A stretch of DNA of 64,000 nucleotides from Asterias rubens (GCF_902459465.1 NC_047064.1:768762-832761); one strand, 5' to 3'; shown: positions 28,149 to 64,000, numbered from the stretch's first letter. The notes: a model not told the origin generated them from the letters alone. Translations and numbers: made by a program.

Positions 28149-28930
28149 AACTAGACATTAAGTGTTTGTGAACAAACACGAAGCTGTTCCTTGTTGTTTT
28201 GCTTGGATTGTGTGCTTCATTGCCCAAGGAATATATAACTGAAAAAAAGGTTTCCAAAAAGTTGTGTAGCTCTTGTTATAAGGTCTTACATGTACTTCCT
28301 GGTTGACCCGTAAGTAAAGGTCTACATGGGCCCACAGCTACCAAAGATTAATCTGCAATGCCAAGGAGTCTATGAAATCGGTTGTGTAGTCCCACCCTTG
28401 TTATATAGTCCCACTTCCGGTTGACACAGAAGTAGAGGTCAACTTGAGGTCACAGTTTTCCAAAGCTAATATTTATTGCCTTAGAGTCTATAACCGAAGT
28501 TTGAACATTAGCTTTGTACTTTTTTAGATATGGGCTCACTTCCGGTTGACCCAGAAGTAAAGGTCAACATGGGGTCAAAGTTGTTTCAAACTAATCTTGA
28601 ATGCCCAAGGAGTCTATAACTGAACAAAAATTGATAATCTGTTGTATAGTTATTGAGACATGGTCCAACTTCCGGTTGACCAGGATAGTAGGGGTCAACT
28701 TGAGGTCACGGTTTTTTAAAGTTAATATTTTATGCCTAAGGAGTTTATAACTGAAAATATTTTGAAAATCTGCTGTATAGTTCTTGAGATATGGTGACAC
28801 TTCCGGTTGACGCGGAAGTAGAGGTCAACTTGAGGTCACAGTTTTTTCAAATTAATCTCCAACCCCCAAGGAGTCTTTAAAAACAAACAGTTGAAAAGTC
28901 GGCCGTGAAGTTCTTGAGATATGATGCTGC
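28149..28930. repeat. Outermost, most diverged array of the ~130-bp satellite monomer (about 5 copies) at the edge of the satellite block.
   Basis: It begins with 'ctagacattaagtgtttgtgaacaaacac', the same junction that opens every 1.57-kb sub-unit. The monomers contain 'cacttccggttgacc.gaagtagaggtcaacttgaggtcac'. Copies are 10-20% diverged from the interior copies. Confidence 0.8.
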
Positions 28931-29814
28931 AAAGATTTCCTAATTAATATGCATATGAGGGTCACTGGTGGTTAATTAATAAATAATTTTAATATATTTT
29001 ATGATATGAATTAAGCTAAACATCCTAAAGCTTCCATTTGATATTATTTTACGTGTTTAAAAACACATAATTAATTTGTAGGATACTCCTTTATTTTCCT
29101 ACTCCTGCCGATAGGGGGCGCTCTTATGAGCCATTTCAGTTGCACGATTTCTGCACCGTAATGTCTGTATCTGACTCTGTATTTGTATGTGTACGTCGCA
29201 GAGACCAAAACTGTCACAAAATGTCAAGCTATAATTTCCCCTATAGAACACGGCCCAGTTTTATGGCTCTGTCTGCTTCAACCAAACTCTGCCCATTTAT
29301 TATACAACCACCATTCTCCGCTTACTGTGCAGGCGCTGAAATATCTGTACAAATTAGTTCAAAGCAAAGATTACATATGATAAGTTTCCCCGCGCACAAG
29401 CACAAATATCCCTGCTAAGCTGTGAAATATGCTTTAAGTAAGCGATAATATCCGCGCTTCTGATGTGTCAATTCTTTGCTTACGCAGTGAAGCAGAGTCA
29501 AACTGGACCAGTTTCACAAGATTTCCCCTCATGTACTAACAATCTTTTTTGACTTTACATGTTTGAAGTGTAGGCCTTACCAAACCTACTTACAGGGCAA
29601 AATTACATGGTTCTCATGACCACCAAAGTCTGCGCTTACGATCACCATTTTCCGCTTTACTGTGATGTGCAAGGTTGGAAAATAATGTGCGAACTTGGAA
29701 GCACACAAACAAAAGAAATCCCTGCTGTAAGCAGTCTATTTCGCTTGACGTAAGCGCAGAATTCAATGCTTCTGCAGAGCACTGAATCTTTTTCATTAAG
29801 CAAGTTCCCATCAT

Positions 29815-31803: not shown

Positions 31804-34800
31804 CTAGACATTAAGTGTTTGTGAACAAACACGAAGCTGTTCCGTGATGTTTTGCTTGGATTATGTGCTTCATTGCCCAAGGAATATATAACTGGAAAAA
31901 AAAGTTTCAAAAAAGTTGTGTAGCTCTTGGTATTAGGTCACACTTCCCGGTTGACCCACAAGTAAAGGTCAAAATGGGCCCACAGCTACCAAAGACTAAT
32001 CTGCAATGCCAAGGAGTCTATAACTGAAAAAGTTTGAGCAATCGGTTGTGAAGATCTTGATATATAGTCCCACTTCCGGTTGCCCAGAAGTAGAGGTCAA
32101 CATAGGGTCACAGTTTTTCAAAGTTAATATTTATTGCCTTAGAGTCTATAACTGAAGTTTGAACATTGGCTTTGTACTTCTTGAGATATTGGCCCACTTC
32201 CGGTCGACCCGGAAGTAAAGGTCAACATGGGTCAAATGTGTTTTAAACTAATCTTGAATGTCCAAGGAGTCTATAACTGAAAAAAGTTTGAAAATCGGTT
32301 GTATATTTCTTGAGATATGGTCCCACTTCCGGTTGACCCGGAAGTAGAGGTCAACTTGAGGTCACGGTTTGTCAAAAGTTATATTTTTATGCCTAAGGAG
32401 TTTATAACTGAAAAAAGTTTTATAATCTGGTGTATAGTTCTTGAGATATGGTCCCACTTCCGGCCGACCCAGAAGTAGGGGTCAACTTGAGGTCACGATT
32501 TTTCAAAATTAATCTCCAATCCCCAAAGAGTCTTTAGCAACAAACAGTCTTAAAATCGGCTGTATACTTCTTGAGATATGGTGCTGCAAAGATTTTCTGA
32601 TTGAATATGCAAATGAGGGTCATGTGGTTAATTAGTTACTAGTTGCCATTTTTCAAAAACAAATTAAAGATGCAAACATCACGACATCGTCTCGACTAGT
32701 CGAACCCTAAGAGTCCTCAACCCATACAGGTCCGCAGTGTGTTGTAAGAGCCATAGAGATGTTTAAACATTGCAATGAAAGTGACTGCACCCAATTTATG
32801 AAGTACTACGTTGTACCCATGATGCCAATATTCTAATTGATTAATTAATTAATAGACGAACATTGATTGCTTTTATGGACTGAAACAAATCTTATTAGAA
32901 TCAGTGTATTTTTCTACACATAATATGATATTTAGGAAACTAACAAATAAATTATTTAGAAGTTATTGTGTTTTTGACCAGTTTAAAGTATAGATTTGAA
33001 GAGCCATTGTGTTTGTGCACAAACACAAAACGTGCATTACATGACGTCATGGTGACGTCGTCCAGAATTTTATGTCGGAAATCACATTAACAGGACCTGA
33101 CTAGTGTATAGCTGAAAAAAGTTTCAGGATCGGCGGTCTAATTTTTGAGATATGGTGTTAACTAGGTTTGCTAATTTAATATTCACAAGCTTAATTAAGG
33201 CTTATTAATTAAAATTTGTTACATTTTTTACGATAAGAATTAAGCTTATGTTCTAAGCTTCAGTTTGGTATAATAAACTCACTCTTTCGTATTATGGTTT
33301 AGGAGATTAGGCTGCCGCAAAAACGTGTACAAACACTATGGGATTTAGGGAGAAACAAAGAATAATAATAATAATAATAATAAAAACTAGACATTAAGTG
33401 TTTGTGAACAAACACGAAGCTGTTCCGTGATGTTTTGCTTGGATTATGTGCTTCATTGCCCAAGGAATATATAACTGGAAAAAAAAGTTTCAAAAAAGTT
33501 GTGTAGCTCTTGGTATTAGGTCACACTTCCCGGTTGACCCACAAGTAAAGGTCAAAATGGGCCCACAGCTACCAAAGACTAATCTGCAATGCCAAGGAGT
33601 CTATAACTGAAAAAGTTTAAGCAATCTGTTGTGAAGATCTTGATATATAGTCCCACTTCCGGTTGCCCAGAAGTAGAGGTCAACATAGGGTCACAGTTTT
33701 TCAAAGTTAATATTTATTGCCTTAGAGTCTATAACTGAAGTTTGAACATTGGCTTTGTACTTCTTGAGATATTGGCCCACTTCCGGTCGACCCGGAAGTA
33801 AAGGTCAACATGGGGTCAAATGTGTTTCAAACTAATCTTGAATGTCCAAGGAGTCTATAACTGAAAAAAGTTTGAAAATCGGTTGTATATTTCTTGAGAT
33901 ATGGTCCCACTTCCGGTTGACCCGGAAGTAGAGGTCAACTTGAGGTCACGGTTTGTCAAAAGTTATATTTTTATGCCTAAGGAGTTTATAACTGAAAAAA
34001 GTTTTATAATCTGTTGTATAGTTCTTGAGATATGGTCCCACTTCCGGCCGACCCGGAAGTAGGGGTCAACTTGAGGTCACGATTTTTCAAAATTAATCTC
34101 CAATCCCCAAAGAGTCTTTAGCAACAAACAGTCTTAAAATCGGCTGTATACTTCTTGAGATATGGTGCTGCAAAGATTTTCTGATTGAATATGCAAATCA
34201 GGGTCATGTGGTTAATTAGTTACTAGTTGCCATTTTTCAAAAACAAATTAAAGATGCAAACATCACGACATCGTCTTCTCAGACTCTCCCCGAGAGTCCT
34301 CAACCCATACAGGTCGCAGTGTGTTGCAAGAGCCATAGAGATGTTTAAACATTACAATGAAAGTGACTGCACCCAATTCATGAAGTACTACGTTGTACCC
34401 ATGATGCCAAGATTCTAATTGATTAATTAATTAATAGACGAACATTGATTGCTTTTATGGACTGAAACAAATCTTATTAGAATCAGTGTATTTTTCTACA
34501 CATAATATGGTATTTAGGAAACTAACAAATAAATTATTTAGAAGTTATTGTGTTTTTGACCAGTTTAAAGTATAGATTTGAAGAGCCATTGTGTTTGTGC
34601 ACAGACACAAAACGTGCATTACATGACGTCATGGTGACGCGTCCAGAATTTTATGTCGGAAATCACATTAACAGGACCTGACTAGTGTATAGCTGAAAAA
34701 AGTTTCAGGATCGGCGGTCTACTTTTTGAGATATGGTGTTAACAAGGTTTGCTAATTAAATATTCATAAGCTTAATTGGGGATTATTAATTAACAATTTT

Positions 34801-36500
34801 AACATTTTTTACGATAAGAATTAAGCTTATGTTCTAAGCTTCAATTTGGTATAATAAACTCACTCTTTCGTATTATGGTTTAGGAGATTAGGCTGCCGCA
34901 AAAACGTGTACAAACACTATGGGATTTAGGGAGAAACAAAGAATAACTAGACATTAAGTGTTTGTGAACAAACACGAAGCTGTTCCTTGTTGTTTTGCTT
35001 GGATTATGTGCTTCATTGCCCAAGGAATATATAACTGAAAAAAAGGTTTCAAAAAAGTTGTGTAGCTCTTGGTATTAGGTCACACTTCCCGGTTGACCCG
35101 CAAGTAAAGGTGAAAATGGGCCCACAGCTACCAAAGACTAATCTGCAATGCCAAGGAGTCTATAACTGAAAAAGTTAAAGCAATCGGTTGTGAAGATCTT
35201 GATATATAGTCCGACTTCCGGTTGACCCAGAAGTAGAGGTCAACATAGGGTCACAGTTTTCCAAAGTTAATATTTATTGCCTTAGAGTCTATAACTGAAG
35301 TTTCAACATTGGTTTGTACTTCTTGAGATATGGGCCCACTTCCGGTCGACCCGGAAGTAAAGGTCAACATGGGGGTCAAATGTGTTTCAAACTAATCTTG
35401 AATGTCCAAGGAGTCTATAACTGAAAAAAGTTTGAAAATCGGTTGTATATTTCTTGAGATATGGTCCCACTTCCGGTTGACCCAGAAGTAGAGGTCAACT
35501 TGAGGTCACGGTTTGTCAAAAGTTATATTTTATGCCTAAGGAGTTTATAACTGAAAAAAGTTTTATAATCTGTTGTACAGTTCTTGAGATATGGTCCCAC
35601 TTCCGGTCGACCCGGAAGTAGGGGTCAACTTGAGGTCACGATTTTTCAAAATTAATTTCCAATCCCCAAAAAGGCTTTAGCAACAAACAGTCTTAAAATC
35701 GGCTGTATACTTCTTGAGATATGGTGCAGCAAAGATTTTCTAATTTAATATGCAAATGAGGGTCATGTGGTTAATTAGTTACTAGTTGCCATTTTTCAAA
35801 AACAAATTAAAGATGCAAACATCACGACATCGTCTTCTCAGACTCTCCCCGAGAGTCCTCAACCCATACAGGTCCGCAGTGTGTTGCAAGAGCCATAGAG
35901 ATGTTTAAACATTGCAATGAAAGTGACTGCACCCAATTTATGAAGTACTACGTTGTACACATGATGCCAAGATTCTAATTGATTAATTAATTAATAGACG
36001 AACATTGATTGCTTTTATGGACTGAAACAAATCTTATTAGAATCAGTGTATTTTTCTACACATAATATGATATTTAGGAAACTAACAGATACATTATTTC
36101 GAAGTTATTGTGTTTTTGACCAGTTTAAAGTATAGATTTGAAGAGCCATTGTGTTTGTGCACAGACACAAAACGTGCATTAAATGACGTCATGGTGACGT
36201 CGTCCGAAATTTTATGTCAGAAATCACCTTAACAGGACCTGACTAGTGTATAGCTGAAAAAAGTTTCAGGATCGGCGGTCTACTTTTTGAGATATGGTGT
36301 TAACTAGGTTTGCTAATTAGATATTCATAAGCTTAATTAAGGCTTATTAATTAACAATTTTAATTTTTTTACGATAAGAATTAAGCTTATGTTCTAAGCT
36401 TCAATTTGGTATAATAAACTCACTCTTTCGTATTATGGTTTAGGAGATTAGGCTGCCACAAAAACGTGTACAAACACTATGGGATTTAGGGAGAAACAAA
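31804..36500. repeat. 1.57-kb macro-satellite, about 3 tandem copies (31804-33386, 33387-34946, 34947-~36500). Each copy has 5 monomers of the 130-bp satellite plus ~870 bp of degenerate monomer-derived sequence.
   Basis: The junction 'ctagacattaagtgtttgtgaac' recurs at 31804, 33387 and 34947. The track ORF MKLFFPVIYSLGNEAH... recurs at 31728 and 33299, a period of 1571 bp. Copies are about 97-99% identical. Confidence 0.9.
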
Positions 36501-36830
36501 GAATAATAATAATAAAAATAATAAAAATCTCGACGAAAACAATAGCTGTTCCGACTGGATCGGAACAGCTAATAATAATAAAAACAATAAAAATCTAGAC
36601 GAAAACAATACCTGTTCCGACGGACGGTCGGAACAGCTAATAAAAACAATAAAAATCTAGACGAAAACAATACCTGTTCCGACGGACGGTCGGAACAGCT
36701 AATAATGAAAATCTCGACGAAAACAATAGCTGTTCCGACTGGATCGGAACAGCTAATAATAAAAATAATAAAAATCTCGACGAAAACAATAGCTGTTCCG
36801 ACTGGATCGGAACAGCTAACTAGACATTAG
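36500..36830. repeat. ~56-62-bp hairpin minisatellite, about 6 copies ('atctcgacgaaaacaatagctgttccgac.gga.cggaacagctaataat').
   Basis: Each unit contains the inverted repeat agctgttccgac ... gtcggaacagct (12-bp arms). Two-copy versions close every higher-order unit (44940-45080, 50930-51055, 56900-57013, 62870-62985). Confidence 0.85.
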
Positions 36831-36889
36831 GTGTTTGTGAACAAACACAAAGCTGTTCCGTGTTCTTTTGCTTTGATTATGTGTTAAAA

Positions 36890-37395
36890 TTACCAAGGAG
36901 TCTATAACTGAAAAAAAGTTTGAAAAATACTGTACAGTGTCTTGAGTTGCGGTGCCACTTCATGGGGTCACGGTAACCTAAGGCTAATCTCTAACGCCCA
37001 AGGAGTCTGTAACTGAAAAAAAAATAGAAAATCGGTTGTGTAGTTCTTGAGATATGGTGCCACTTCTGGTTGACCCGGAAGTAGAGGCCAATTTGGGTCA
37101 TGGATTTTCAAAGTTTATTTGTAATGCCTTAGGAGGATAAAACTGAACAAAAAGGATTGAAAATCGGTTGTATAGTACTTGGCGTATGGTCCCACTTCCG
37201 GTTCACCCGGACGTAGAGGCCAACATGGGGTCACGGGTTTTCACAGTCAATATTAATGTCAAGGAGTCTGTAAGTGAAAACAAATTGAAAATCGGTTGAG
37301 TAGTTCTTGAGATATGGTCCCACTTCCGGTTGACCCGGAAGTAGAGGTCAAGTTGAGGTCACGGTTTTTCCGAATTTTTCTCCTATCCCCAAGGA
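36890..37395. repeat. Variant 130-bp monomer array, about 4 copies; subfamily 2 of the ETS-palindrome satellite.
   Basis: Same monomer core ('cacttc.ggttgacccggaagtagaggccaa.ttgggtca'). Identical arrays occur at 47160-47685, 53120-53645 and 59090-59610. Confidence 0.85.
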
Positions 37396-37810
37396 GTCTT
37401 ATAACTACAAACAGTCGACATTGTTAAAGAAGAATGTCGTCTTCCTGTGATAATTTATCTCGGAATGTCGACATCCTAAAAGTAGGATGTCGTCTTCCTG
37501 TGATAATTTATACCGGGATGTCGACATCCTAAAAGTAGGATGTCGTCTTGCTGTGATAATTTATCTCGGTATGTCGACATCCTAAACGTCAGTTGTCATC
37601 TTCCTGTGATAATTTATCTCGAGAAGTCGACATTCTAAAAGAAGAATGTCGTCTTCCTGTGATAATTTATCTCGGAATGTCGATATCCCAAAAGTAGGAT
37701 GTCGTCTTGCTGTGATAATTTATCTCGGGAAGTTGACATCCTAAAATTAGGATGTCGTCTTCCTGTGATAATTTATCTCAGGAAGTCGACATCCCGAAAG
37801 TAGGATTTTT
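37395..37810. repeat. 53-bp palindrome-bearing minisatellite, about 8 copies.
   Basis: Unit 'gtcgacatcctaaaagtaggatgtcgtcttcctgtgataatttatctcgggat'. Each unit carries the inverted repeat cgacatcct-aaaagt-aggatgtcg, with the SalI-type GTCGAC at the unit junction. Identical arrays occur at 47685-48075, 53645-54050 and 59610-60010. Confidence 0.9.
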
Positions 37811-38689
37811 GTTGTTGAAATGATTTTACTTGTATACGTTTTGTTATATAGTATTACATTTCCAACAATATTTACAATATTCATGGTCATAAACTACGTT
37901 AAACTAAAATAATGGACGAAACAAAATGTCCCACGTAAAACTCCATAAGGTTTGGAACATAATGGTCCCGCAAGTTCAAATACGCGCAAGCCTTGCTTAG
38001 TCTACACAGAAGGTAATAAATAATTTATTACAAGCAAATGCAATCGTACAATAATAGAAAACAAAAATTAAAAATCAATGCAAAACACATGTAGGGGATG
38101 GAGGGACCCATAAAAGCAAACCTTAACGAGTACGGACCCCCTCCCCCTTTTTTTCTAACGAAGAAAGCAATGTGAGCAATTCTATTTAGTGGGTGTAATC
38201 TTATGTAACGGCAAAACAACTCAAATTTGCAGGAAGAACAAACACAAAAACAGTTAGCGTAAAATAAAACTTAACCATATATTTAAATGAAACAGATAAA
38301 TAAAATACCCAACGTCATAATAAAACATAAAAGGGAACACTAGTTGTGTGATAAAAATAAATACTAGAGAAAATGGGCCCCACAACTCTTGCTGGGAAAA
38401 AAACCATGTCGAAATATACCATTGTTATCCATTAGAGACGTTTTGTAGTCACTTTGGTTGGGGAGTGAGGAATCTAGCAAAAATACACGAAAATCCCAAT
38501 GCTGGGACATCAGTTTATACACCAGACAAATCTATTATATGGATATTCTTTTGAATATTTTATTTTGTGCATAATATGGTCCGTGATTCATGGTCCGTTG
38601 AATATAAGTGGGCGGTTGTGTATCGACAACAGACTTTTATCATTATGATCACCATCAGCCCCATGTATAACTAGACATAAGAATTTGTT

Positions 38690-42963: not shown

Positions 42964-43052
42964 ACACCTAATAAACCACAACGACTGACGATTGCACTTT
43001 TGGTATTGTCATTGTTAAACTCCGGTTCCATTGTGTGCTGTCTGTTATCCTC

Positions 43053-43385
43053 CACACATAGATTTTCTTGTGAATAGTAGCTGTGTATGATTCATGGTTC
43101 GCTGAATATTGTGGCGATAACAAACTTTTATCATTTTGAACTGAATGCTTGATTTATTACCCTCCACACATAGATTTTCTTGTGAATAGTAGCTGTGTAT
43201 GATTCATGGTTCGCTGAATAATGTGGCGAAAACAAACTTTAATCATTTTGAACTGAATGCTTGATTTATTACCTTCCACACATAGATTTTCTTGTGAATA
43301 GTAGCTGTGTATGATTCATGGTTTGCTGAATATTGTGGCAATAACAAACTTTTATCATTTTGAACTGAATGCTTGATTTATTATC
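43053..43385. repeat. 112-bp tandem repeat, 3 copies ('ccacacatagattttcttgtgaatagtagctgtgtatgattcatggttcgctgaatattgtggcgataacaaacttttatcattttgaactgaatgcttgatttattaccct').
   Basis: Identical arrays occur at 49026-49360, 54987-55320 and 60958-61295. It is derived from the immediately upstream unique sequence ('gtccgtgattcatggtccgttgaatat ... cttttatcatt'). Confidence 0.85.
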
Positions 43386-44022: not shown

Positions 44023-44091
44023 GTGCGCAGATTCGAACTCGCACGTATCAGTGAAGAAAGCGCGACTGATGTCCACTTGGCTACGAGGGCC
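44023..44091 (-). other. tRNA-derived Pol III module (box A plus box B) on the minus strand, embedded in every higher-order unit; a SINE-head-like element.
   Basis: The minus-strand reading is GGCCCTCGTAGCCAAGTGGACATCAGTCGCGCTTTCTTCACTGATACGTGCGAGTTCGAATCTGCGCAC. Box A TAGCCAAGTGG fits TRGCnnAGTGG. Box B GAGTTCGAATC lies about 40 nt downstream. The cloverleaf is degenerate (12-nt anticodon-position loop, weak T-stem). Copies occur at 49998-50066, 55958-56026 and 61928-61996. Confidence 0.5.
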
Positions 44092-44255
44092 AACACAATA
44101 ATCAAGGGTTTACATGTATTTATTTCAACAGAGGGGATTATAAATGATCCGGCGAAATAATTCTCGTGTCATGATTTTGCGAACATTGTCACTAAATATG
44201 AACTGCTAACGCCTTTAACTTAAGTAGGGGTTGAAATGTAGTATTTGATGCCTTT

Positions 44256-51000: not shown

Positions 51001-51055
51001 AATTAAAATCTCGACGAAAACAACACCTGTTCCGACGGTAGGTCGGAACCGCTAA
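45081..51055. repeat. Higher-order satellite unit U2 (5,975 bp).
   Basis: ORF-track anchors repeat with a period of 5966-5975 bp (45096, 57029 and 63001; 48303 and 60235; 45412, 51384, 57345 and 63317). U2 and U4 are about 99% identical. Confidence 0.9.
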
Positions 51056-54000
51056 TTATGTTGCGAATGGGTGACTAGTGAATTTTACTACTCGACTAGT
51101 CGCACCTCAAACCTGCCTACGACACTTGTCGAGATAAAATACGGATTCTCAAGATTTGTACCGCCATGTGCCGCAAGGGCATATTAATTATGTTGCGAAT
51201 GGGTGTGACTAGTGAATTTACTACTCGACTAGTCGCACTTCAAACCTAACTATGACACTTGTCGAGATAAAGTACGGATTCTCAAGATTTGTGCCGCTAT
51301 GCCGCAAGGGCAATATAATTATGTTGCGAATATAAGCAACACAACTGGTTCACCAAACAGGTAGTCGGGACAAATTTTTAATTATGTTGCGATATGGGTT
51401 GTGGACTAGTGGAATTTACTACTCGACTAGTCGCAATTCAAACCTAACTATGACATTTTGTCGAGATAAGTACAGATTCTCAAGATTTGTGCCGCTTTGC
51501 CGCAAGGGCAATATTAATTATGTTGCGAATAGTAGTAAGCAACACAACTGGTTCACCAAAACAGGTAGTCTGGACAAATTTTGTAGTCGATGTGTGGACA
51601 CGGTTATAACTGAATAGAGATAAAAACAGTAGTCGCGACTCAAATTATAATTTGTAGTCGCGGCTTTAACACCTAAAGCACACTAGTCGCACCTGCCTAC
51701 TTTTGTCACAAGTAAAGCACAGTTTTTCCTGAAAATGCAAATCAAATTTTTTAGTCACTGTTTTCGCAGTGAAAGTTTCGCAGGAGTTGAGCACAATAGT
51801 CAACTGTAGCAAATTGTTGATGCCAATTGTGAAGTGAAGAACACATTCCCTGCTAAGCTGTAAAATACGCTTAGCGTAAGCACAGTTCCCTGATTACGTA
51901 AGCGCTGCGATTCTTTCCTTTAAAAGCCATTGGCCCAGCACCAAACTACATAATAGCTTTTTAAACACAAAAAGCAGCTTAACCATGCCTCATGTTCAAG
52001 TTGTGAATCCAGGTGTTCTGCTCAATTTCTGCAATTTTGTAATGTTTGCCTGTTTAGTACAAGCAGCTCTATAAAACTGAGCCACTCAACCACCAGAGAA
52101 ACGTCAGCATAATAAAATCTCTGCTTTTGTATTCCTGTCAAAGATGTTTTTGTTTGTCATGGTCTAGTTTCCGAACGAACGCGAAATACTGGAATTAGTT
52201 TAGGCAATGGTCCCCGGCGCGAACAAGGTGACTTTACCCGTAAATAATTCCAAATCCCGGGCGGTCTATTTCGTCGTCCACGCTCGTCGGCTGAATGAAC
52301 CGGTCCACGACGCACCATGCTCAGGCTTGTTCAAATTTTGGGAACAAGTTTAGACTTGTGCTAGTCGGTTACCGTAAGAAATCTATGTATATTGAACAAA
52401 AAACGCAATAACACCGGTCGAAAATGGTATACGGACTCGGTCACGTTAACAGTTTTACAATTTTGACTATTCAAATCAAGTTTTCGCCGTACCCATGATC
52501 TTTGAAAAAACTTCCCTGGAAATACAGGTTTTTTAAAATAATTACACTGTTTCTATAAGTTCTGATGCTTTAAAATGACCATTAGTAAATATATCTTTAA
52601 TCTAAAGTAATTTTGGGAAGTGTAAAACATGTAATTTATTTTTAATCGAATAAATTATGTTTGGAAAGCTGGGTTTGTTTACACTTAAAGAGCCATTGGT
52701 GTTTGTGCACAGACACAAAACGTGCAGTACATGACGTCATGAAGACGTCGTCCAGAATTTTATGTCGGAAATCACATTACAGGACCTGACTAGTGTATAG
52801 CTGAAAAAAGTTGCAGGATCGGCGGTCTACTTTTTTGAGATATGGTGTTAACAAGGTTTTGCTAATAAATATTCATGAGCTTAATTAAGGATTATTAATT
52901 AACAATTTTAACATTTTTTGCGATAAGAATTAAGCTTATGTTCTAAGCTTCAATTTGGTATAATAAAACTCACTCTTTCGTATTAGGGTTTAGGAGATTA
53001 GGCTGCCACAAAACGTGTACAAACACTATGGGATTTAGGGAGAAACAAAGAATAATAATAACTAGACATTAGGTGTTTGTGAACAAACACAAAGCTGTTC
53101 CGTGTTCTTTTGCTTTGATTATGTGTTAAAATTACCAAGGAGTCTATAACTGAAAAAAGTTTGAACAATACTGTACAGTGTCTTGAGTTGCGGTGCCACT
53201 TCATGGGGTCACGGTAACCTAAGGCTAATCTCTAACGCCCAAGGAGTCTGTAACTGAAAAAAAAATAGAAAATCGGTTTGTGTAGTTCTTGAGATATGGT
53301 GCCACTTCTGGTTGACCCGGAAGTAGAGGCCAATTTGGGGTCATGGATTTTCAAAGTTTATTTGTAATGCCGTAGGAGGATAAAACTGAACAAAAAGGAT
53401 TGAAAATCGGTTGTATAGTACTTGGCGTATGGTCCCACTTCCGGTTCACCCGGACGTAGAGGCCAACATGGGGTCACGGGTTTTCACAGTCAATATTAAT
53501 GTCAAGGAGTCTGTAAGTGAAAACAAATTGAAAATCGGTTGAGTAGTTCTTGAGATATGGTCCCACTTCCGGTTGACCCGGAAGTAGAGGTCAAATTGAG
53601 GTCACGGTTTTCCGAATTTTTCTCCTATCCCCAAGGAGTCTTATAACTACAAACAGTCGACATTGTTAAAGAAGAATGTCGTCTTCCTGTGATAATTTAT
53701 CTCGGAATGTCGACATCCTAAAAGTAGGATGTCGTCTTCCTGTGATAATTTATCTCGGGATGTCGACATCCTAAAAGTAGGATGTCGTCTTGCTGTGATA
53801 ATTTATCTCGGTATGTCGACATCCTAAACGTCAGTTGTCATCTTCCTGTGATAATTTATCTCGAGAAGTCGACATTCTAAAAGAAGAATGTCGTCTTCCT
53901 GTGATAATTTATCTCAGAATGTCGATATCCCAAAAGTAGGATGTCGTCTTGCTGTGATAATTTATCTCGGGAAGTTGACATCCTAAAATTAGGATGTCGT

Positions 54001-57000
54001 CTTCCTGTGATAATTTATCTCAGGAAGTCGACATCCCGAAAGTAGGATTTTTGTTGTTGAAATGATTTTACTTGTATACGTTTTGTTATATAGTATTACA
54101 TTTCCAACAATATTTACAATATTCATGGTCATAAACTACGTTAAACTAAAATAATGGACGAAACAAAATGTCCCACGTAAAACTCCATAAGGTTTGGAAC
54201 ATAATGGTCCCGCAAGTTCAATACGCGCAAGCCTTGCTTAGTCTACACAGAAGTAATAAATAATTTATTACAAGCAAATGCAATCGTACAATAATAGAAA
54301 ACAAAAATTAAAAATCAATGCAAAACACATGTAGGGGATGGAGGGACCCATAAAAGCAAACCTTAACGAGTACGGACCCCCTCCCCCTTTTTTCTAACGA
54401 AGAAAGCAATGTGAGCAATTCTATTAGTGGGTGTAATCTTATGTAACGGCAAAACAACTCAAATTTGCAGGAAGAACAAACACAAAAACAGTTAGCGTAA
54501 AATAAAACTTAACCATATATTTAAATGAAACAGATAAATAAAATACCCAACGTCATAATAAAACATAAAAGGGAACACTAGTTGTGTGATAAAAATAAAT
54601 ACTAGAGAAAATGGGCCCCACAACTCTTGCTGGGAAAAAAACCATGTCGAAATATACCATTGTTATCCATTAGAGACGTTTTGTAGTCACTTTGGTTGGG
54701 GGAGTGAGGAATCTAGCAAAAATACACGAAAATCCCAATGCTGGGACATCAGTTTATACACCAGACAAATCTATTATATGGATATTCTTTTGAATATTTT
54801 ATTTGTGCATAATATGGTCCGTGATTCATGGTCCGTTGAATATAAGTGGGCGGTTGTGTATCGACAACAGACTTTTATCATTTGATCACCATCAGCCCCA
54901 TGTATAATAACCTCAACGACTGACGATTGCACTTTTGGTATTGTCATTGTTAAACTCCGGTTCCATTGTGTGCTGTCTGTTATCCTCCACACATAGATTT
55001 TCTTGTGAATAGTAGCTGTGTATGATTCATGGTTCGCTGAATATTGTGGCGATAACAAACTTTTATCATTTTGAACTGAATGCTTGATTTATTACCCTCC
55101 ACACATAGATTTTCTTGTGAATAGTAGCTGTGTATGATTCATGGTTCGCTGAATAATGTGGCGAAAACTAACTTTAATCATTTTGAACTGAATGCTTGAT
55201 TTATTACCTTCCACACATAGATTTTCTTGTGAATAGTAGCTGTGTATGATTCATGGTTTGCTGAATATTGTGGCAATAACAAACTTTTATCATTTTGAAC
55301 TGAATGCTTGATTTATTATCTAGAGGTAAATGCTTGAGGCCAGTAAGAGTATTGTGCACGTACACCATGTAGTTTTTGTTGGAAACCGTTTGCTAACAGC
55401 CATTTATGTTACCCTTGAAATAAAATCAGAAAATTTATAAGTTTGCTTGTTGCATAAAATTAAATTGAAGATGATGCCTGAATTGATTTTTACAATCAGA
55501 GTTGGACTCTAGACTGACGTGTTGGACTCCTTGAACACTCCAAGTGGTTCAATAGGTAGTGCAATTCCAATACTTATGCTGATGTTCTCATGATGTCAGC
55601 ATCAACAGGAAGTTCCAACCACTTTGTCCCCTTGTACAATTAAATATGCAAATATGGGTCACGTGGTTAATTAATTACGATTTTTAATTTTTTTTGGGGG
55701 TCGGTGGTTTGATGTTTGATCTAGTACGATTTGATTTCACAGAACTCTTAACCACCAAACTCTGCGCTTATGATCACCATTTTCCGATTACTGTGTTTTT
55801 CAAACATCATCGTGTCATGCATGCACACAGGTTATGTTTGGCTAACAATTGAGAAAAAGAAAAGGCAACACTATTGATATAAAGATAAGAATCTAACTTA
55901 AAATATTTCAAAAAGAAATATTTTTTTAGTTTTGGGGGCTAAAAACAAATTTTTCCCGTGCGCAGATTCGAACTCGCACGTATCAGTGAAGAAAGCGCGA
56001 CTGATGTCCACTAGGCTACGAGGGCCAACACAATAATCAAGGGTTTACATGTATTATTTCAACAGAGGGGATTATAAATGATCCGGCGAAATAATTCTCG
56101 TGTCATGATTTTGCGAACATTGTCACTAAATATGAACTGCTAACGCCTTTAACTTAAGTAGGGGTTGAAATGTAGTATTTGATGCCTTTAGGGGTTTTTG
56201 ACGAGGACGTCGTCGTCGTCAAAAACCCCTATTCAACTACGCACGTTCGTCCACAAAGAAAACACATCGGAGTCTAAATTTGACATTTTTTCACTCATTT
56301 CTCAAAAACTACAACACCACAGCAAGTAATATTTTATAACTGTTAAGTAGGGTTGAAATGCAGTATTAGATTGCCTTAAGGGGGTTTTTGACGACGACGT
56401 CGATGTCGTCAAAAACCCCTATCTAATTACGCACGTTCGTTTTAACGAAAACCCATGCACAGAGTAATTGGTCCAGAACGCGGTTAGAAAAACAAGGACA
56501 AATTTAACGCACGTTCTAACGAAAATCCCAAACCTCCGTACTTTGTGCGTGTACAGAGTAACGTGTCCAGAACGCGGGTAGAAAACAAAATAGTATAGAC
56601 TCCTCTCAAGAAGTCAACAACTCATTGAGGTACATACTGTGTTGTATAACCAAAGCGAATGTTTCACAATAACATGAAAGTGACTGCATCAAAATTACAA
56701 ATTAAAAAGTTCAAATGAAGACCACGTGGTTAATTAATGAAGAATTTTTACACTTTTTTGTTAGAGTAAAACTTATGTTCTAAGCTTCAATTTGATATAT
56801 GATTTAACTATTTTATCCTCATACTTTAGGAGTAGGGGCCTGAACAAAAACGCTGTACAAACGCTATGGGGTTTTAGGCGGAAACAAAGAATAATAATCA
56901 TAAAAATAATTAAATCTCGACGAAAACAACACCTGTTCCGACGGTAGGTCGGAACAGCTAATAAAATCTCGACGAAAACAACACCTGTTCCGACGGTAGG

Positions 57001-57013
57001 TCGGAACAGCTAA
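51056..57013. repeat. Higher-order satellite unit U3 (5,958 bp). Its first ~2.5 kb carries markedly more single-base indels than U2 or U4.
   Basis: Same order of segments. Relative to U2 and U4 there are many 1-nt insertions or deletions, for example 'gggcatattaatt' against 'gggcaatattaatt', 'gcgatatgggttgtggactagtggaattt' against 'gcgaatgggtgtgactagtgaaattt', and 'aagatgtttttg' against 'aagagtttttg'. These change the track ORFs (51384 MLRYGLWTSGIYY... against MLRMGVTSEIYY...). Confidence 0.85.
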
Positions 57014-60000
57014 TTATGTTGCGAATGGGTGACTAGTGAATTTTACTACTCGACTAGTCGCACCTCAAACCTGCCTACGACACTTGTCGAGATAAAATAC
57101 GGATTCTCAAGATTTGTACCGCCATGTGCCGCAAGGGCAATATTAATTATGTTGCGAATGGGTGTGACTAGTGAAATTTACTACTCGACTAGTCGCACTT
57201 CAAACCTAACTATGACACTTGTCGAGATAAAGTACGGATTCTCAAGATTTGTGCCGCTATGCCGCAAGGGCAATATAAATTATGTTGCGAATATAAGCAA
57301 CACAACTGGTTCACCAAACAGGTAGTCGGGACAAATTTTTAATTATGTTGCGAATGGGTGTGACTAGTGAAATTTACTACTCGACTAGTCGCAATTCAAA
57401 CCTAACTATGACATTTGTCGAGATAAAGTACAGATTCTCAAGATTTGTGCCGCTTTGCCGCAAGGGCAATATTAATTATGTTGCGAATAGTAGTAAGCAA
57501 CACAACTGGTTCACCAAACAGGTAGTCTGGACAAATTTTGTAGTCGATGTGTGGACACGGTTATAACTGAATAGAGATAAAAACAGTAGTCGCGACTCAA
57601 ATTATAATTTGTAGTCGCGGCTTTAACACTAAAGCACACTAGTCGCACCTGCCTACTTTTGTCACAAGTAAAGCACAGTTTTTCCTGAAAATGCAAATCA
57701 AATTTTTTAGTCACTGTTTTCGCAGTGAAAGTTTCGCAGGAGTTGAGCACAATTAGTCAACTGTAGCAAATTGTTTGATGCCAATTGTGAAGTGAAGAAC
57801 ACATTCCCTGCTAAGCTGTAAAATACGCTTAGCGTAAGCACAGTTCCCTGATTACGTAAGCGCTGCGATTCTTTCCTTTAAAAGCCATTGGCCCAGCACC
57901 AAACTACATAATAGCTTTTTAAACACAAAAAGCAGCTTAACCATGCCTCATGTTCAAGTTGTGAATCCAGGTGTTCTGCTCAATTTCTGCAATTTTGTAA
58001 TGTTTGCCTGTTTAGTACAAGCAGCTCTATAAAACTGAGCCACTCAACCACCAGAGAAACGTCAGCATAATAAAATCTCTGCTTTTGTATTCCTGTCAAA
58101 GAGTTTTTGTTTGTCATGGTCTAGTTTCCGAACGTAACGCGAAATACTGGAATTAGTTTAGGCAAATGGTCCCCGGCGCGAACAAGGTGACTTTACCCGT
58201 AAATAATTCCAAATCCCGGGCGGTCTATTTTCGTCGTCCACGCTCGTCGGCTGAAATGAACCCGGTCCACGACGCACCATGCTCAGGCTTGTCAAATTTT
58301 GGGAACAAGTTTAGACTTGTGCTAGTCGGTTACCGTAAGAAATCTATGTATATTGAACAAAAAAAACGCAATAACACCGGTCGAAAATGGTATACGGACT
58401 CGGTCAAGTTAACAGTTTTACAATTTTGACTATTCAAATCAAGTTTTACGCCGTACCCATGATCTTTGAAAAAACTTCCCTGGAAATACAGGTTTTTTAA
58501 AATAATTACACTGTTTCTATAAGTTCTGATGCTTTTAAAATGACCATTAGTAAAATATATCTTAATCTAAAGTAATTTTGGGAAGTGTAAAACATGTAAT
58601 TTATTTTTAATCGAATAAATTATGTTTTGGAAAGCTGGGTTTGTTTACACTTAAAGAGCCATTGTGTTTGTGCACAGACACAAAACGTGCATTACATGAC
58701 GTCATGAAGACGTCGTCCAGAATTTTATGTCGGAAATCACATTAACAGGACCTGACTAGTGTATAGCTGAAAAAAGTTGCAGGATCGGCGGTCTACTTTT
58801 TGAGATATGGTGTTAACAAGGTTTGCTAATTAAATATTCATGAGCTTAATTAAGGATTATTAATTAACAATTTTAACATTTTTTGCGATAAGAATTAAGC
58901 TTATGTTCTAAGCTTCAATTTGGTATAATAAACTCACTCTTTCGTATTATGGTTTAGGAGATTAGGCTGCCACAAAAACGTGTACAAACACTATGGGATT
59001 TAGGGAGAAACAAAGAATAATAATAACTAGACATTAGGTGTTTGTGAACAAACACAAAGCTGTTCCGTGTTCTTTTGCTTTGATTATGTGTTAAAATTAC
59101 CAAGGAGTCTATAACTGAAAAAAGTTTGAACAATACTGTACAGTGTCTTGAGTTGCGGTGCCACTTCATGGGGTCACGGTAACCTAAGGCTAATCTCTAA
59201 CGCCCAAGGAGTCTGTAACTGAAAAAAAAATAGAAAGTCGGTTGTGTAGTTCTTGAGATATGGTGCCACTTCTGGTTGACCCGGAAGTAGAGGCCAATTT
59301 GGGGTCATGGATTTTCAAAGTTTATTTGTAATGCCTTAGGAGGATAAAACTGAACAAAAAGGATTGAAAATCGGTTGTATAGTACTTGGCGTATGGTCCC
59401 ACTTCCGGTTCACCCGGACGTAGAGGCCAACATGGGGTCACGGGTTTTCACAGTCAATATTAATGTCAAGGAGTCTGTAAGTGAAAACAAATTGAAAATC
59501 GGTTGAGTAGTTCTTGAGATATGGTCCCACTTCCGGTTGACCCGGAAGTAGAGGTCAAATTGAGGTCACGGTTTTTCCGAATTTTTCTCCTATCCCCAAG
59601 GAGTCTTATAACTACAAACAGTCGACATTGTTAAAGAAGAATGTCGTCTTCCTGTGATAATTTATCTCGGAATGTCGACATCCTAAAAGTAGGATGTCGT
59701 CTTCCTGTGATAATTTATCTCGGGATGTCGACATCCTAAAAGTAGGATGTCGTCTTGCTGTGATAATTTATCTCGGTATGTCGACATCCTAAACGTCAGT
59801 TGTCATCTTCCTGTGATAATTTATCTCGAGAAGTCGACATTCTAAAAGAAGAATGTCGTCTTCCTGTGATAATTTATCTCAGAATGTCGATATCCCAAAA
59901 GTAGGATGTCGTCTTGCTGTTATAATTTATCTCGGGAAGTTGACATCCTAAAATTAGGATGTCGTCTTCCTGTGATAATTTATCTCAGGAAGTCGACATC

Positions 60001-62985
60001 CCGAAAGTAGGATTTTTGTTGTTGAAATGATTTTACTTGTATACGTTTTGTTATATAGTATTACATTTCCAACAATATTTACAATATTCATGGTCATAAA
60101 CTACGTTAAACTAAAATAATGGACGAAACAAAATGTCCCACGTAAAACTCCATAAGGTTTGGAACATAATGGTCCCGCAAGTTCAAATACGCGCAAGCCT
60201 TGCTTAGTCTACACAGAAGGTAATAAATAATTTATTACAAGCAAATGCAATCGTACAATAAAAGAAAACAAAAATTAAAAATCAATGCAAAACACATGTA
60301 GGGGATGGAGGGACCCATAAAAGCAAACCTTAACGAGTACGGACCCCCTCCCCCTTTTTTTCTAACGAAGAAAGCAATGTGAGCAATTCTATTTAGTGGG
60401 TGTAATCTTATGTAACGGCAAAACAACTCAAATTTGCAGGAAGAACAAACACAAAAACAGTTAGCGTAAAATAAAACTTAACCATATATTTAAATGAAAC
60501 AGATAAATAAAATACCCAACGTCATAATAAAACATAAAAGGGAACACTAGTTGTGTGATAAAAATAAATACTAGAGAAAATGGGCCCCACAACTCTTGCT
60601 GGGAAAAAAACCATGTCGAAATATACCATTGTTATCCATTAGAGACGTTTTGTAGTCACTTTGGTTGGGGAGTGAGGAATCTAGCAAAAATACACGAAAA
60701 TCCCAATGCTGGGACATCAGTTTATACACCAGACAAATCTATTATATGGATATTCTTTTGAATATTTTATTTTGTGCATAATATGGTCCGTGATTCATGG
60801 TCCGTTGAATATAAGTGGGCGGTTGTGTATCGACAACAGACTTTTATCATTTTGATCACCATCAGCCCCATGTATAATAAACCTCAACGACTGACGATTG
60901 CACTTTTGGTATTGTCATTGTTAAACTCCGGTTCCATTGTGTGCTGTCTGTTATCCTCCACACATAGATTTTCTTGTGAATAGTAGCTGTGTATGATTCA
61001 TGGTTCGCTGAATATTGTGGCGATAACAAACTTTTATCATTTTGAACTGAATGCTTGATTTATTACCCTCCACACATAGATTTTCTTGTGAATAGTAGCT
61101 GTGTATGATTCATGGTTCGCTGAATAATGTGGCGAAAACTAACTTTAATCATTTTGAACTGAATGCTTGATTTATTACCTTCCACACATAGATTTTCTTG
61201 TGAATAGTAGCTGTGTATGATTCATGGTTTGCTGAATATTGTGGCAATAACAAACTTTTATCATTTTGAACTGAATGCTTGATTTATTATCTAGAGGTAA
61301 ATGCTTGAGGCCAGTAAGAGTATTGTGCACGTACACCATGTAGTTTTGTTGGAAACCGTTTGCTAACAGCCATTTATGTTACCCTTTGAAATAAAATCAG
61401 AAAATTTATAAGTTTGCTTGTTGCATAAAATTAAATTGAAGATGATGCCTGAATTGATTTTTACAATCAGAGTTGGACTCTAGACTGACGTGTTGGACTC
61501 CTTGAACACTCCAAGTGGTTCAATAGGTAGTGCAATTCCAATACTTATGCTGATGTTCTCATGATGTCAGCATCAACAGGAAGTTCCAACCACTTTGTCC
61601 CCTTGTACAATTAAATATGCAAATATGGGTCACGTGGTTAATTAATTACGATTTTTAATTTTTTTGGGGGTCGGTGGTTTGATGTTTGATCTAGTACGAT
61701 TTGATTTCACAGAACTCTTAACCACCAAACTCTGCGCTTATGATCACCATTTTCCGATTACTGTGTTTTTCAAACATCATCGTGTCATGCATGCACACAG
61801 GTTATGTTTGGCTAACAATTGAGAAAAAGAAAAGGCAACACTATTGATACAAAGATAAGAATCTAACTTAAAATATTTCAAAAAGAAATATTTTTTTAGT
61901 TTTGGGGGCTAAAAACAAATTTTTCCCGTGCGCAGATTCGAACTCGCACGTATCAGTGAAGAAAGCGCGACTGATGTCCACTAGGCTACGAGGGCCAACA
62001 CAATAATCAAGGGTTTACATGTATTTATTTCAACAGAGGGGATTATAAATGATCCGGCGAAATAATTCTCGTGTCATGATTTTGCGAACATTGTCACTAA
62101 ATATGAACTGCTAACGCCTTTAACTTAAGTAGGGGTTGAAATGTAGTATTTGATGCCTTTAGGGGTTTTTGACGAGGACGTCGTCGTCGTCAAAAACCCC
62201 TATTCAACTACGCACGTTCGTCCACGAAGAAAACACATCGGAGTCTAAATTTGACATTTTTTCACTCATTTCTCAAAAACTACAACACCACAGCAAGTAA
62301 TATTTTATAACTGTTAAGTAGGGTTGAAATGCAGTATTAGATTGCCTTAAGGGGGTTTTTGACGACGACGTCGATGTCGTCAAAAACCCCTATCTAATTA
62401 CGCACGTTCGTTTTAACGAAAACCCATGCACAGAGTAATTGGTCCAGAACGCGGTTAGAAAAACAAGGACAAATTTAACGCACGTTCTAACGAAAATCCC
62501 AAACCTCCGTACTTTGTGCGTGTACAGAGTAACGTGTCCAGAACGCGGGTAGAAAACAAAATAGTATAGACTCCTCTCAAGAAGTCAACAACTCATTGAG
62601 GTACATACTGTGTTGTATAACCAAAGCGAATGTTTCACAATAACATGAAAGTGACTGCATCAAAATTACAAATTAAAAAGTTCAAATGAAGACCACGTGG
62701 TTAATTAATGAAGAATTTTTACACTTTTTTGTTAGAGTAAAACTTATGTTCTAAGCTTCAATTTGATATATGATTTAACTATTTTATCCTCATACTTTAG
62801 GAGTAGGGGCCTGAACAAAAACGCTGTACAAACGCTATGGGGTTTTAGGCGGAAACAAATAATAATAATCATAAAAATAATTAAAATCTCGACGAAAACA
62901 ACACCTGTTCCGACGGTAGGTCGGAACAGCTAATAAAATCTCGACGAAAACAACACCTGTTCCGACGGTAGGTCGGAACAGCTAA
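57014..62985. repeat. Higher-order satellite unit U4 (5,972 bp).
   Basis: Near-identical to U2. All sub-arrays are present (133-bp x3.5, 130-bp variant x4, 53-bp x8, 112-bp x3, tRNA-like module, hairpins, 60-bp x2). Confidence 0.9.
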
Positions 62986-64000
62986 TTATGTTGCGAATGG
63001 GTGACTAGTGAATTTTACTACTCGACTAGTCGCACCTCAAACCTGCCTACGACACTTGTCGAGATAAAATACGGATTCTCAAGATTTGTACCGCCATGTG
63101 CCGCAAGGGCAATATTAATTATGTTGCGAATGGGTGTGACTAGTGAAATTTACTACTCGACTAGTCGCACTTCAAACCTAACTATGACACTTGTCGAGAT
63201 AAAGTACGGATTCTCAAGATTTGTGCCGCTATGCCGCAAGGGCAATATAAATTATGTTGCGAATATAAGCAACACAACTGGTTCACCAAACAGGTAGTCG
63301 GGACAAATTTTTAATTATGTTGCGAATGGGTGTGACTAGTGAAATTTACTACTCGACTAGTCGCAATTCAAACCTAACTATGACATTTGTCGAGATAAAG
63401 TACAGATTCTCAAGATTTGTGCCGCTTTGCCGCAAGGGCAATATTAATTATGTTGCGAATAGTAGTAAGCAACACAACTGGTTCACCAAACAGGTAGTCT
63501 GGACAAATTTTGTAGTCGATGTGTGGACACGGTTATAACTGAATAGAGATAAAAACAGTAGTCGCGACTCAAATTATAATTTGTAGTCGCGGCTTTAACA
63601 CTAAAGCACACTAGTCGCCCCTGCCTACTTTTGTCACAAGTAAAGCACAGTTTTTCCTGAAAATGCAAATCAAATTTTTTAGTCACTGTTTTCGCAGTGA
63701 AAGTTTCGCAGGAGTTGAGCACAATTAGTCAACTGTAGCAAATTGTTTGATGCCAATTGTGAAGTGAAGAACACATTCCCTGCTAAGCTGTAAAATACGC
63801 TTAGCGTAAGCACAGTTCCCTGATTACGTAAGCGCTGCGATTCTTTCCTTTAAAAGCCATTGGCCCAGGACCAAACTACATAATAGCTTTTTAAACACAA
63901 AAAGCAGCTTAACCATGCCTCATGTTCAAGTTGTGAATCCAGGTGTTCTGCTCAATTTCTGCAATTTTGTAATGTTTGCCTGTTTAGTATAAGCAGCTCT
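62986..64000. repeat. Higher-order satellite unit U5, a partial copy truncated by the window end.
   Basis: Identical to the first ~1 kb of U4 (track ORFs at 63001, 63317 and 63483 equal those at 57029, 57345 and 57511). Confidence 0.9.

Follow-up and report, generated by a model that had tools for sequence, protein, structure and literature searches.

The stretch of Asterias rubens NC_047064.1 that we analysed (the window, 64,000 nt, whose numbering is used throughout) raises the question of why one short palindrome, followed by a pair of AGGTCA repeats, should recur many times beside a gene. The original prediction for this DNA had taken the region for satellite DNA whose monomers share a core of ETS-family and nuclear-receptor sites, acting as a transcription-factor sink or as a hairpin hotspot. 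We show that 28150-64000 is a nest of non-autonomous, non-coding Helentron/HINE-type rolling-circle transposons and not a satellite, and that the elements have the ~130-150-bp monomers as their 'central repeats'. Few repeats in insects and marine invertebrates are as abundant as tandem-repeat Helentron/HINE elements (DINE-1, pearl, DTC84, Cg_HINE), which also seed satellite DNAs. To our knowledge nobody has found the reason for their central repeats, or for the low variability of parts of these repeats. At this locus the low-variability box can be narrowed to two 7-8-bp half-sites, which would turn it into a concrete protein-binding hypothesis, with an ETS-class protein or a Rep protein as the reader. 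The locus itself is re-pictured, from a satellite to a nested, tandemly amplified transposon complex beside a gene.

Conservation of the core half-sites

We distinguish the main ~130-bp monomers (M-type) from the monomers of an insertion (I-type) and from two families known from outside loci (G and H). The exact pattern ACTTCCGG-N4-7-CCGGAAGT has 15 matches in the window, all on the + strand from 32196 to 59549, and none in dinucleotide shuffles; a profile search of the window with the ~45-bp core finds 46 copies, again on the + strand only (28297 to 59569), and no match in positions 1-28000. The reference M-type core at 32325..32365 (+) reads ACTTCCGG-TTGAC-CCGGAAGT-AG-AGGTCA-ACTTG-AGGTCA-C, and the reference I-type core at 39624..39664 (+) reads ACTTCCGG-TTTCGA-CCGGAAGT-AA-AGGTCA-AATG-GGGTCA-C. 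Both examples quoted in the original prediction are thus found (32325, 39624), and the shared ~40-bp core is real and well beyond chance. The three subfamilies that had been named all exist, although the 36890-type, at 76% identity, belongs to the main 130-bp type as a variant. Of the 46 cores, 30 have an intact arm 1 (ACTTCCGG), 21 an intact arm 2 (CCGGAAGT) and just 15 both, so that the claim of identical 8-bp arms holds for the best copies only. The pair RGGTCA-N4/5-RGGTCA begins 2 nt past arm 2 and is intact in 33 of the 46, with a spacing of N5 in the M-type and of N4 in the I- and G-types. The spacers between the arms that are on record from the window, the outside loci and oyster elements are TTGAC, TTTCGA, TTTGAA, TGTGGA and TGACGA, all 5 or 6 nt long.

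The outside loci are 40 metagenome contigs that were fished with the exact-arm core pattern, a bias reduced by dropping one perfect copy per locus before counting. With them come families G and H as well as many independent copies. Identity to the window is 98% for two metagenome contigs and 76-88% for the JACSE* contigs. One contig (L020, JACSEG010000649.1) has intron-less open reading frames (ORFs) at 59-1675 and 3190-5820, which encode a RhoGEF protein and a DBB/TIR/ankyrin PIK3AP1-like protein 74% identical to Asterias proteins, and then a G-type core at 6125-6165. Because this contig joins such an ORF to such a core, the element families are present in a sea star. The contig is probably transcript-derived or chimeric and, if transcript-derived, it places the elements in sea-star mRNAs.

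Among 46 non-redundant M-type monomers, the mean pairwise identity is 0.97 for arm 1, 0.92 for the spacer, 0.82 for arm 2, 0.93 for AGGTCA, 0.91 for GGGTCA and 0.79 for the 74 upstream columns. Core columns are better conserved than the others (p=7e-5; for the window-only, unascertained monomers p=4e-4), but the predicted difference between arms and spacer is not seen within this type, where the spacer is no more variable than the arms. Across all families, the 87 distinct cores retain arm 1 in 71 cases, arm 2 in 41 and both in 29, and 42 of them keep arm 1 alone. Between the family consensus monomers, the core is 75-91% identical, whereas the monomer remainder, compared between M and I or G, stands at 47-53%, which is the level of shuffled sequences. 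The half-sites of the AGGTCA pair are conserved at 88-100%, and where the cores of two families differ, neither the arms nor the GGTCA boxes are affected.

The arms are also found in the Crassostrea gigas (Pacific oyster) satellitome. CgiSat05, an 811-bp 'monomer' annotated as DNA/Helitron (PMC8268682), contains TTTCACTTCCGGTTTCGACCGGAAGTGACAG, of which the 22-nt palindrome is that of the window I-type, spacer TTTCGA included, and CgiSat06 contains CTTCCGG-TGTGGA-CCGGAAGT and CTTCCGG-TGACGA-CCGGAAGT. When CgiSat05 and CgiSat06 were compared with the window by sensitive BLAST, the palindrome came out first (22/22 and 25/26) and the (AAT)n-ACTAGA junction second. At a distance of ~250 bp from its palindrome, CgiSat05 has an internal block that can be aligned with the left half of the M-type monomer (score 29, against at most 27 in 1000 shuffles), which suggests that this monomer was put together from blocks intrinsic to the element. 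In an alignment of three oyster and five window-lineage cores, whose rows were chosen as intact copies and therefore show the best copies and not the average, 15 columns are invariant and correspond exactly to CTTCCGG and CCGGAAGT, and none of the other 36 columns is invariant.

These results bear out the proposal that the arms are constrained beyond common descent, in that the core is kept between families while the rest of the monomer is at the shuffled level, and the oyster carries the same arms with other spacers. On the alignments at hand the constraint is right on a deep time-scale and is not visible within a family. In the sequences compared here, we show that no other internal sequence of the lineage is conserved as deeply as the half-sites (A)CTTCCGG and CCGGAAGT, which the oyster elements have as well. 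The same comparison shows AGGTCA-N4/5-RGGTCA as a younger, lineage-specific addition, because its spacing is 5 in the M-type and 4 in the I- and G-types and because it is absent in oyster. The proposed DR4/DR5 nuclear-receptor elements are weakened by this variation between families and by the lack of GGTCA repeats in the oyster relatives, and the pair does not have the fixed half-site spacing of a nuclear-receptor direct-repeat (DR) element.

The invariance could also have come about with no function at all, through recent exchange or capture of modules between families or biased homogenisation, and through the picking of intact copies. Recombination of flanks and repeats is known in HINE families (PMC7492417), the exact arms served to ascertain the outside loci, and the M-type core as a whole is only modestly better kept than the rest (0.87 vs 0.79). 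The pattern is, however, the same in the unascertained window (p=4e-4), and the family cores differ at places other than the arms and GGTCA boxes. The oyster and window elements moreover share only the arms, the end architecture and the one weakly aligning block, and their spacers and flanks differ, which speaks against a recent transfer. We therefore regard an origin of this kind as unlikely.

Stem, host site or transposon site

A palindrome can be kept as a structure, and the original prediction had proposed a hairpin or cruciform role. The core would then act as a stem-loop in single-stranded DNA (ssDNA) while the element transposes or replicates by the rolling-circle route, making and resizing the arrays as a hotspot of pausing, template switching or recombination. 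This element class passes through ssDNA (PMC8268682), the DTC84 elements offer a precedent (PMC3879986), and the core folds as an 8-10-bp ssDNA hairpin, with modest energies of -12.8 kcal/mol in the I-type (z -3.3) and -10.6 in the G-type (z -2.8); the M-type fold, at -8.5 kcal/mol, is no better than shuffles (z -1.07). The arrays of all M-type sub-lineages end exactly at the 5' edge of the core (monomer profile position 76-79), but this shared end is inherited and so does not represent independent events. Several deletions break within the core: it is largely gone from the first monomer of each 3-monomer array, with the junction GCCACTTC|ATGGGGTCAC (~36945, and near 47219, 53186 and 59151), and outside loci L027 and L034 have further deletions with a breakpoint there. 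Against a stem, none of the 8 arm pairs has changed on both sides across the 87 distinct cores, the share of core arm cells that are paired equals the expectation (88.7% vs 88.8% in shuffles), two thirds of the distinct cores have no perfect stem, and the loop is the least conserved part of the core.

The terminal hairpins of the same elements do compensate. In an alignment of the arms alone, with a fixed linker in place of the loops, the hairpin of one end (the 3' stem-loop xxTTTGT…ACAAAxx) covaries, with 9 cells changed on both sides (score 0.311 vs 0.07 shuffled, 0/500), and the inner parts of the hairpin of the other end vary by compensation (CGGCT/AGCCG, CGGGC/GCCCG, CGTGCA/TGCACG, CGGAC/GTCCG). 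Because the spacers vary, single arms are kept and only the terminal hairpins compensate, we read the arms as sequence half-sites and not as a stem, and a structural role of the core appears doubtful. Three related candidates were rejected. A pseudoknot between loop GTTGACC and downstream GGTCAAC is perfect in the M-type, has a 1-nt bulge in I and G and is absent in oyster, with one compensatory event; a circovirus-type rolling-circle origin (loop nick plus iterons) is at odds with a loop that is the least conserved part and with 'iterons' that are lineage-specific; and a core copied from the subterminal inverted repeat (subTIR) or terminal hairpin would have co-evolved with it, whereas the termini here have drifted (GTTCCG, GTTCGG, GTTTCG) and the core stayed CTTCCGG.

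A host function would mean that the host keeps the arrays for ETS and nuclear-receptor factors, as their sink or regulatory platform. The arms agree exactly with the ETS consensus and the repeats with extended AGGTCA half-sites (AAAGGTCA, TCAAGGTCA), and the complex adjoins a gene, probably within its intron (exons up to 28117). Hosts can indeed use Helitron-borne transcription-factor sites (PMC6927752). The duplicates at this locus tell against it. Arrays A (28.2 kb) and B (31.9 kb), 87% identical to each other, differ at 19 of 207 core sites (9.2%) and at 61 of 492 non-core sites (12.4%), a difference with p=0.24 in what is a low-power test; core and flanks diverge alike after duplication, with no sign of purifying selection at this locus. 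Arm 2 loses many sites through CpG-to-CpA and other changes, and both arms are kept in only one third of the distinct cores. The transposon region shows no depletion of CpG, its observed/expected ratio being 0.96 vs 0.65 in the genic part. The window holds 46 cores, in arrays of 3-5 monomers or dispersed, and not hundreds of paired sites in tandem as had been supposed. The spacing of the direct repeat changes from 5 to 4 between families, the repeat is missing in oyster, and the motif travels with the transposon in two phyla, so that its conservation needs no host role. A function for the host is thus very improbable. Because the conservation shows among family masters and across phyla, we infer that selection acts on the transposon lineage, through the master copies at amplification, and not on the host locus.

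This leads to the reading that we prefer, and in which we place middling confidence, that the palindrome may be a protein-recognition site kept by selection on the transposon lineage and not by a host satellite function. The protein would read the arms as double-stranded half-sites, with one monomer per arm, and tandem amplification of the core module would have produced the arrays, or central repeats. We lean towards a conserved host ETS-class factor as the putative reader; a transposon-encoded Rep or accessory protein is a possible alternative. The invariant arm corresponds to the optimal ETS class I site, ACCGGAAGT, with (A)CCGGAAGT as the consensus. Both arms match the ETS consensus, and in the I- and G-types and in oyster both read ACCGGAAGT, so that the predicted ETS assignment is exact at the level of the motif.

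The elements carry TGACGTCA, a palindrome of the cAMP response element (CRE) type, as a second conserved motif. It occurs 20 times in the window against 0.95 expected, and 17 of these are in the transposon complex: one at a fixed place in each M-type unit, at 31471, 33042 (33042..33049), 34624, 36184, 46764, 52732 and 58697, and ten, often doubled, in the I-type insertion (39167-42858). CgiSat05 carries TGACGTAACGTCA and GGAAGTGACGTTGTCA at the corresponding place. Together, the ETS arms and the TGACGTCA motifs might form a promoter- or enhancer-like module, which we lean towards seeing as derived from an autonomous master or as keeping the copies accessible.

Several observations weigh against a protein-recognition site of this kind, in addition to the choice of intact rows and the exact-arm ascertainment described above. 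The match to ETS may be coincidental. Conservation of arm 2 is poor, with its CpG intact in 51 of the 87 distinct cores against 80 for the CpG of arm 1, and the sub-lineages L003 and L026 carry CCCCRAAGT throughout; because whole sub-lineages do so, a strict requirement for two arms is excluded. The terminal hairpin arms of the oyster elements (GTCTTCCGTT / AACGGAAGAC) resemble the core arms, which would fit a transposon-encoded reader, and the ORFs of the window and loci include no autonomous partner for the idea of a master's promoter. More specifically, (A)CTTCCGG-N5-6-CCGGAAGT could be an ancient cis-element of one Helentron sub-lineage in molluscs and echinoderms that recruits a host ETS factor (e.g. 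of GABP/Elk type), possibly with CRE-binding factors at TGACGTCA, for accessibility or transcription in the germ line. We put this forward tentatively, as an improbable version. If it were true, the central repeats of HINE/DINE-1 elements would gain a defined function, and the elements would be large-scale carriers of ETS sites in marine invertebrate genomes.

Element ends, class and layout

Each array is preceded by a ~60-bp end, which we call L and which starts with CTAGACAT. In copy A it spans 28150..28214 (+) and consists of ACTAGACAT, the hairpin GTGTTTGT-GA-ACAAACAC and the subterminal repeat GCTGTTCC, and it recurs at 31804, 33387, 34947, 36820, 47094, 53062 and 59027; the M-type order is ACTAGACAT, the same hairpin and then GCTGTTCCG. 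The opposite end, R, is found in five tandem copies of AACAATAG-CTGTTCCGAC-loop-GTCGGAACAG-CTAA at 36507..36819 (+), the last of which abuts the next L directly (…GGAACAGCTAA|CTAGACAT…), and in pairs at 44972-45081, 50947-51058, 56907-57014 and 62882-62986. This multiplication of R, 2-5x in tandem, is seen likewise in five outside loci (L014, L027, L021, L007 and L025). Whole units without R are repeated head to tail with the precise junction …CAGCTAA|CTAGACAT…, and these junctions recall the tandem truncated Helitrons from rolling-circle replication for which models are discussed in PMC8268682. The I-type ends follow the same plan in other letters, with L as CTAGACATAAG-AATTTGTT…AACAAATT-CGAGGTGTTCGG and R as AACAATAACAATAGGTTTTCGGCTAAAAGCCGAACACCTAA.

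The ends and internal parts agree with the features by which HINE/DINE-1 elements are diagnosed (PMC4067079, PMC7492417). In the HINE orientation, which is the minus strand here, R becomes the 5' subTIR with an adjacent inverted repeat and L becomes the 3' subTIR, stem-loop and 3' terminus, so that the whole order is 5' subTIR 2-3 nt from the end, inverted repeat, microsatellite, central repeats, 3' subTIR, and stem-loop ~10 nt from the 3' end. The 9-bp subterminal motif of one end and the terminal motif of the other are reverse complements, and each of the two substitutions between the families has its counterpart at the opposite end (GCTGTTCCG/CGGAACAGC vs GGTGTTCGG/CCGAACACC). On the element strand the subTIR pair reads T-TAGGTGTTCGGC… and …CCGAACACC in the I-type and AGCTGTTCCGA/TCGGAACAGCT in the M-type, and the end signature of the lineage is TAGGTGTTCGG… / …ATGTCTAGT. 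An inverted repeat lies beside the 5' subTIR and a stem-loop near the 3' end. The central tandem repeats have a fixed orientation, with all 46 window cores and all L ends on the + strand, and core and L ends are on one strand in every locus that holds both, in the window and outside. The microsatellite is (AAT)n in M-type units, and GAA-rich runs precede the next L in I- and G-type units. The element boundaries are T-rich, with AA/TT at the boundary and no terminal inverted repeat, and 22 of 23 genuine L ends are flanked by AA, which is TT when read on the element strand. The single comparison of a filled with an empty insertion site is ambiguous by TAA and fits T|T on the element strand, A|T, or a 3-bp TAA duplication.

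Two other classes were rejected. For a canonical Helitron, the element read on the + strand ends in a hairpin and CTAA and an A|T site is possible, but it starts with CTAGAC and not with TC, and the asymmetric subTIRs are Helentron-like. For a PIF/Harbinger-type miniature inverted-repeat transposable element, CTAGACAT… does not match the reverse-complemented 3' end GGTGTTCGG…, and the repeat is subterminal at one end only. ORF lists and Pfam gave no Rep/helicase ORF in the window or in 41 loci, and hence no autonomous partner; the window has no Rfam family at gathering score and no ARAGORN match that would indicate a structured RNA or tRNA origin, and a scan of viral contigs for the core found nothing.

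According to Tandem Repeats Finder and self-BLAST, the arrays consist of ~130-bp monomers, and those of one array resemble each other to 74-78%. Four arrays, at 28.2, 31.9, 33.5 and 35.0 kb, have 5 monomers, and four, at 36.9, 47.2, 53.2 and 59.2 kb, have 3 monomers plus one core-deleted monomer. The long periods are those of higher-order tandem units, of 1.57 kb (three, ~96% identical) and 5.97 kb (four, 99% identical). With 5 monomers in the longest array, the region is not the satellite that had been proposed, and classical satellite DNA, with long homogeneous head-to-tail arrays of one monomer, was rejected. Array A (28215..28925, +) has 5 monomers of ~130 bp and a half monomer, with cores at 28297, 28410, 28536, 28666 and 28798. 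The three tandem 1.57-kb truncated units seen in self-BLAST (31804..36506, +) each comprise L, a 5-monomer array, a ~0.9-kb internal part and (AAT)n. Their arrays, as matched by the monomer profile, lie at 31868-32584, 33451-34168 and 35011-35727 (+), with + strand cores at 31945, 32070, 32193, 32322 and 32454 in the first unit, at 33528, 33653, 33776, 33906 and 34038 in the second, and at 35086, 35212, 35335, 35466 and 35597 in the third. The left half of the M-type monomer (AAAAGTTTGAAAATCGGTTG…TTGAGATATG; profile columns 33-71, e.g. 32275-32315) is also present solo inside units, at 31532-31586, 33103-33157, 34684-34737, 36245-36299 and 46825-46878.

The four tandem 5.97-kb composite units (36820..64000, +; starts 36820, 47094, 53062 and 59027) each open with L and a 3-monomer array, at 36891-37371, 47165-47646, 53132-53613 and 59097-59578 (+), with cores on the + strand at 37060, 37192 and 37319; 47334, 47467 and 47594; 53302, 53435 and 53562; and 59266, 59399 and 59526. 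The first unit is broken by a 4.3-kb insertion at 38671-42971, and the filled site and the three empty sites in the sister units bear out the ~4.28-kb insertion of the original prediction. It consists of one or more nested I-type elements (CTAGACATAAG…GCCGAACACCTAA; 38671..42971, +), has a second L inside, at 40396, and carries R twice at its right end. It holds 14 cores at distances that range from ~147 bp to several hundred bp, and their spacer is TTTCGA or a variant of it (38847, 38995, 39328, 39477, 39623, 40070, 40573, 40894, 41410, 41614, 41936, 42085, 42231 and 42678, all +). The I-type monomers are ~147 bp long, and their match to the M-type monomer profile is confined to positions 78-126, that is, to the core.

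The 5.97-kb units also contain a 53-bp tandem repeat of 7.4 copies with the palindrome GACATCCTA…TAGGATGTC (37414-37806, 47689-48081, 53656-54048 and 59621-60013), a 112-bp tandem repeat of three copies, 94-95% identical (43045-43383, 49019-49357, 54980-55318 and 60951-61289), and two long palindromes GGGGTTTTTGACGA…GACGTCG…GTCGTCAAAAACCCC at ~44255-44300 and ~44440-44490. A tRNA-like stretch on the minus strand at ~44020-44095 (GGCCCTCGTAGCCAAGTGG…GAGTTCGAATCTGCGCACAGG), not called by ARAGORN, may be a fragment of a tRNA-derived short interspersed nuclear element or a pseudogene.

Upstream, on the + strand, an intron-containing gene for a class V aminotransferase (cysteine desulfurase-like) has exons from 10189 to 28117 and none downstream of 28117 within the window; the transposon complex adjoins this gene and probably sits in its intron. 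The closest relatives of the protein are rotifer and bacterial proteins (54-58% identity), whereas a sea-star (Patiria) protein has 46%, and the taxonomy is patchy. A 39-bp tandem repeat at 3315-3833 (13.3 copies, 97% identical, several frames open) is unrelated to the transposon complex.

Comparison with known elements

The supplement of PMC8268682 gives the end boxes of the Repbase Helitron-N3_CGi group from the Pacific oyster satellitome. The reverse complement of oyster Box 5, ACTAGACACGATCTCGTTGCGAGCAACGAGTGGGTCTTCCGT, aligns to the window L, and that of Box 4, …AACAATAACAATAGGGTCTTCCGTTGGAAAACGGAAGACCCTA, to R. The former is built as ACTAGACAC…hairpin…GGGTCTTCCGT, and the latter as AACAATAACAATAGG-hairpin-CTA, which is the architecture and partly the sequence of the window ends. 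CgiSat05 is a truncated element unit that ends in (AAT)n-AACTAGAG…, and CgiSat05 and CgiSat06 share with the window (AAT)n directly before ACTAGA, TGACGT motifs, and 'satellite monomers' that are tandem truncated element units. A palindrome occurs once per 311-811 bp in the oyster units, which lack AGGTCA repeats, whereas the window has one per 130-150-bp monomer together with the repeats. The two sets come from different phyla, their remaining sequence is unalignable, and outside loci of the window families carry sea-star genes. We show that the lineage is that of the Repbase 'Helitron-N3_CGi'-group and the bivalve pearl/DTC84 elements.

The DTC84/pearl elements (PMC3879986) resemble those of the window in having L, 1-5 core repeats, a microsatellite and R, an ordered array of monomer variants, an inverted repeat that is subterminal at one end and terminal at the other, and AA at the ends. 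The DTC84 palindrome TTGTCCGGACAA lies in the least variable segment beside the monomer junction (PMC3879986), as does the palindrome-bearing box here, but it has another sequence and no spacer, and the window units differ in having ~0.9 kb of unique sequence between array and microsatellite. It has been proposed as a hotspot for array length (PMC3879986), while the covariation data presented here speak against a purely structural role. With DINE-1/HINE elements (PMC4067079; Cg_HINE, PMC7492417) the window elements share a 5' subTIR that lies 2-3 nt from the end beside an inverted repeat, a microsatellite, central tandem repeats that all face one way, a 3' subTIR at 34-43 nt and a stem-loop at ~10 nt from the end, T-rich boundaries, and perhaps the lack of a clear target duplication; they differ in that their 5' hairpin units are multiplied 2-5x and that whole truncated units stand in tandem. 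Caenorhabditis Helitrons, which carry and spread heat-shock elements, provide a possible working model (PMC6927752). There, HSF-1 binding and gene activation have been measured (PMC6927752), whereas the window elements have a motif match to ETS and the CRE-like TGACGTCA.

The main text of PMC8268682 has one general mention of palindromes and does not discuss this one, and searches of the main texts of the accessible literature for the core string returned nothing relevant. A palindrome-bearing conserved box in the central repeats of such elements is already known from DTC84, CvA and Cg_HINE. What seems to be new in the accessible literature is that the box resolves into two half-sites, which are invariant from the mollusc to the echinoderm lineage and behave as a sequence motif and not as a hairpin.

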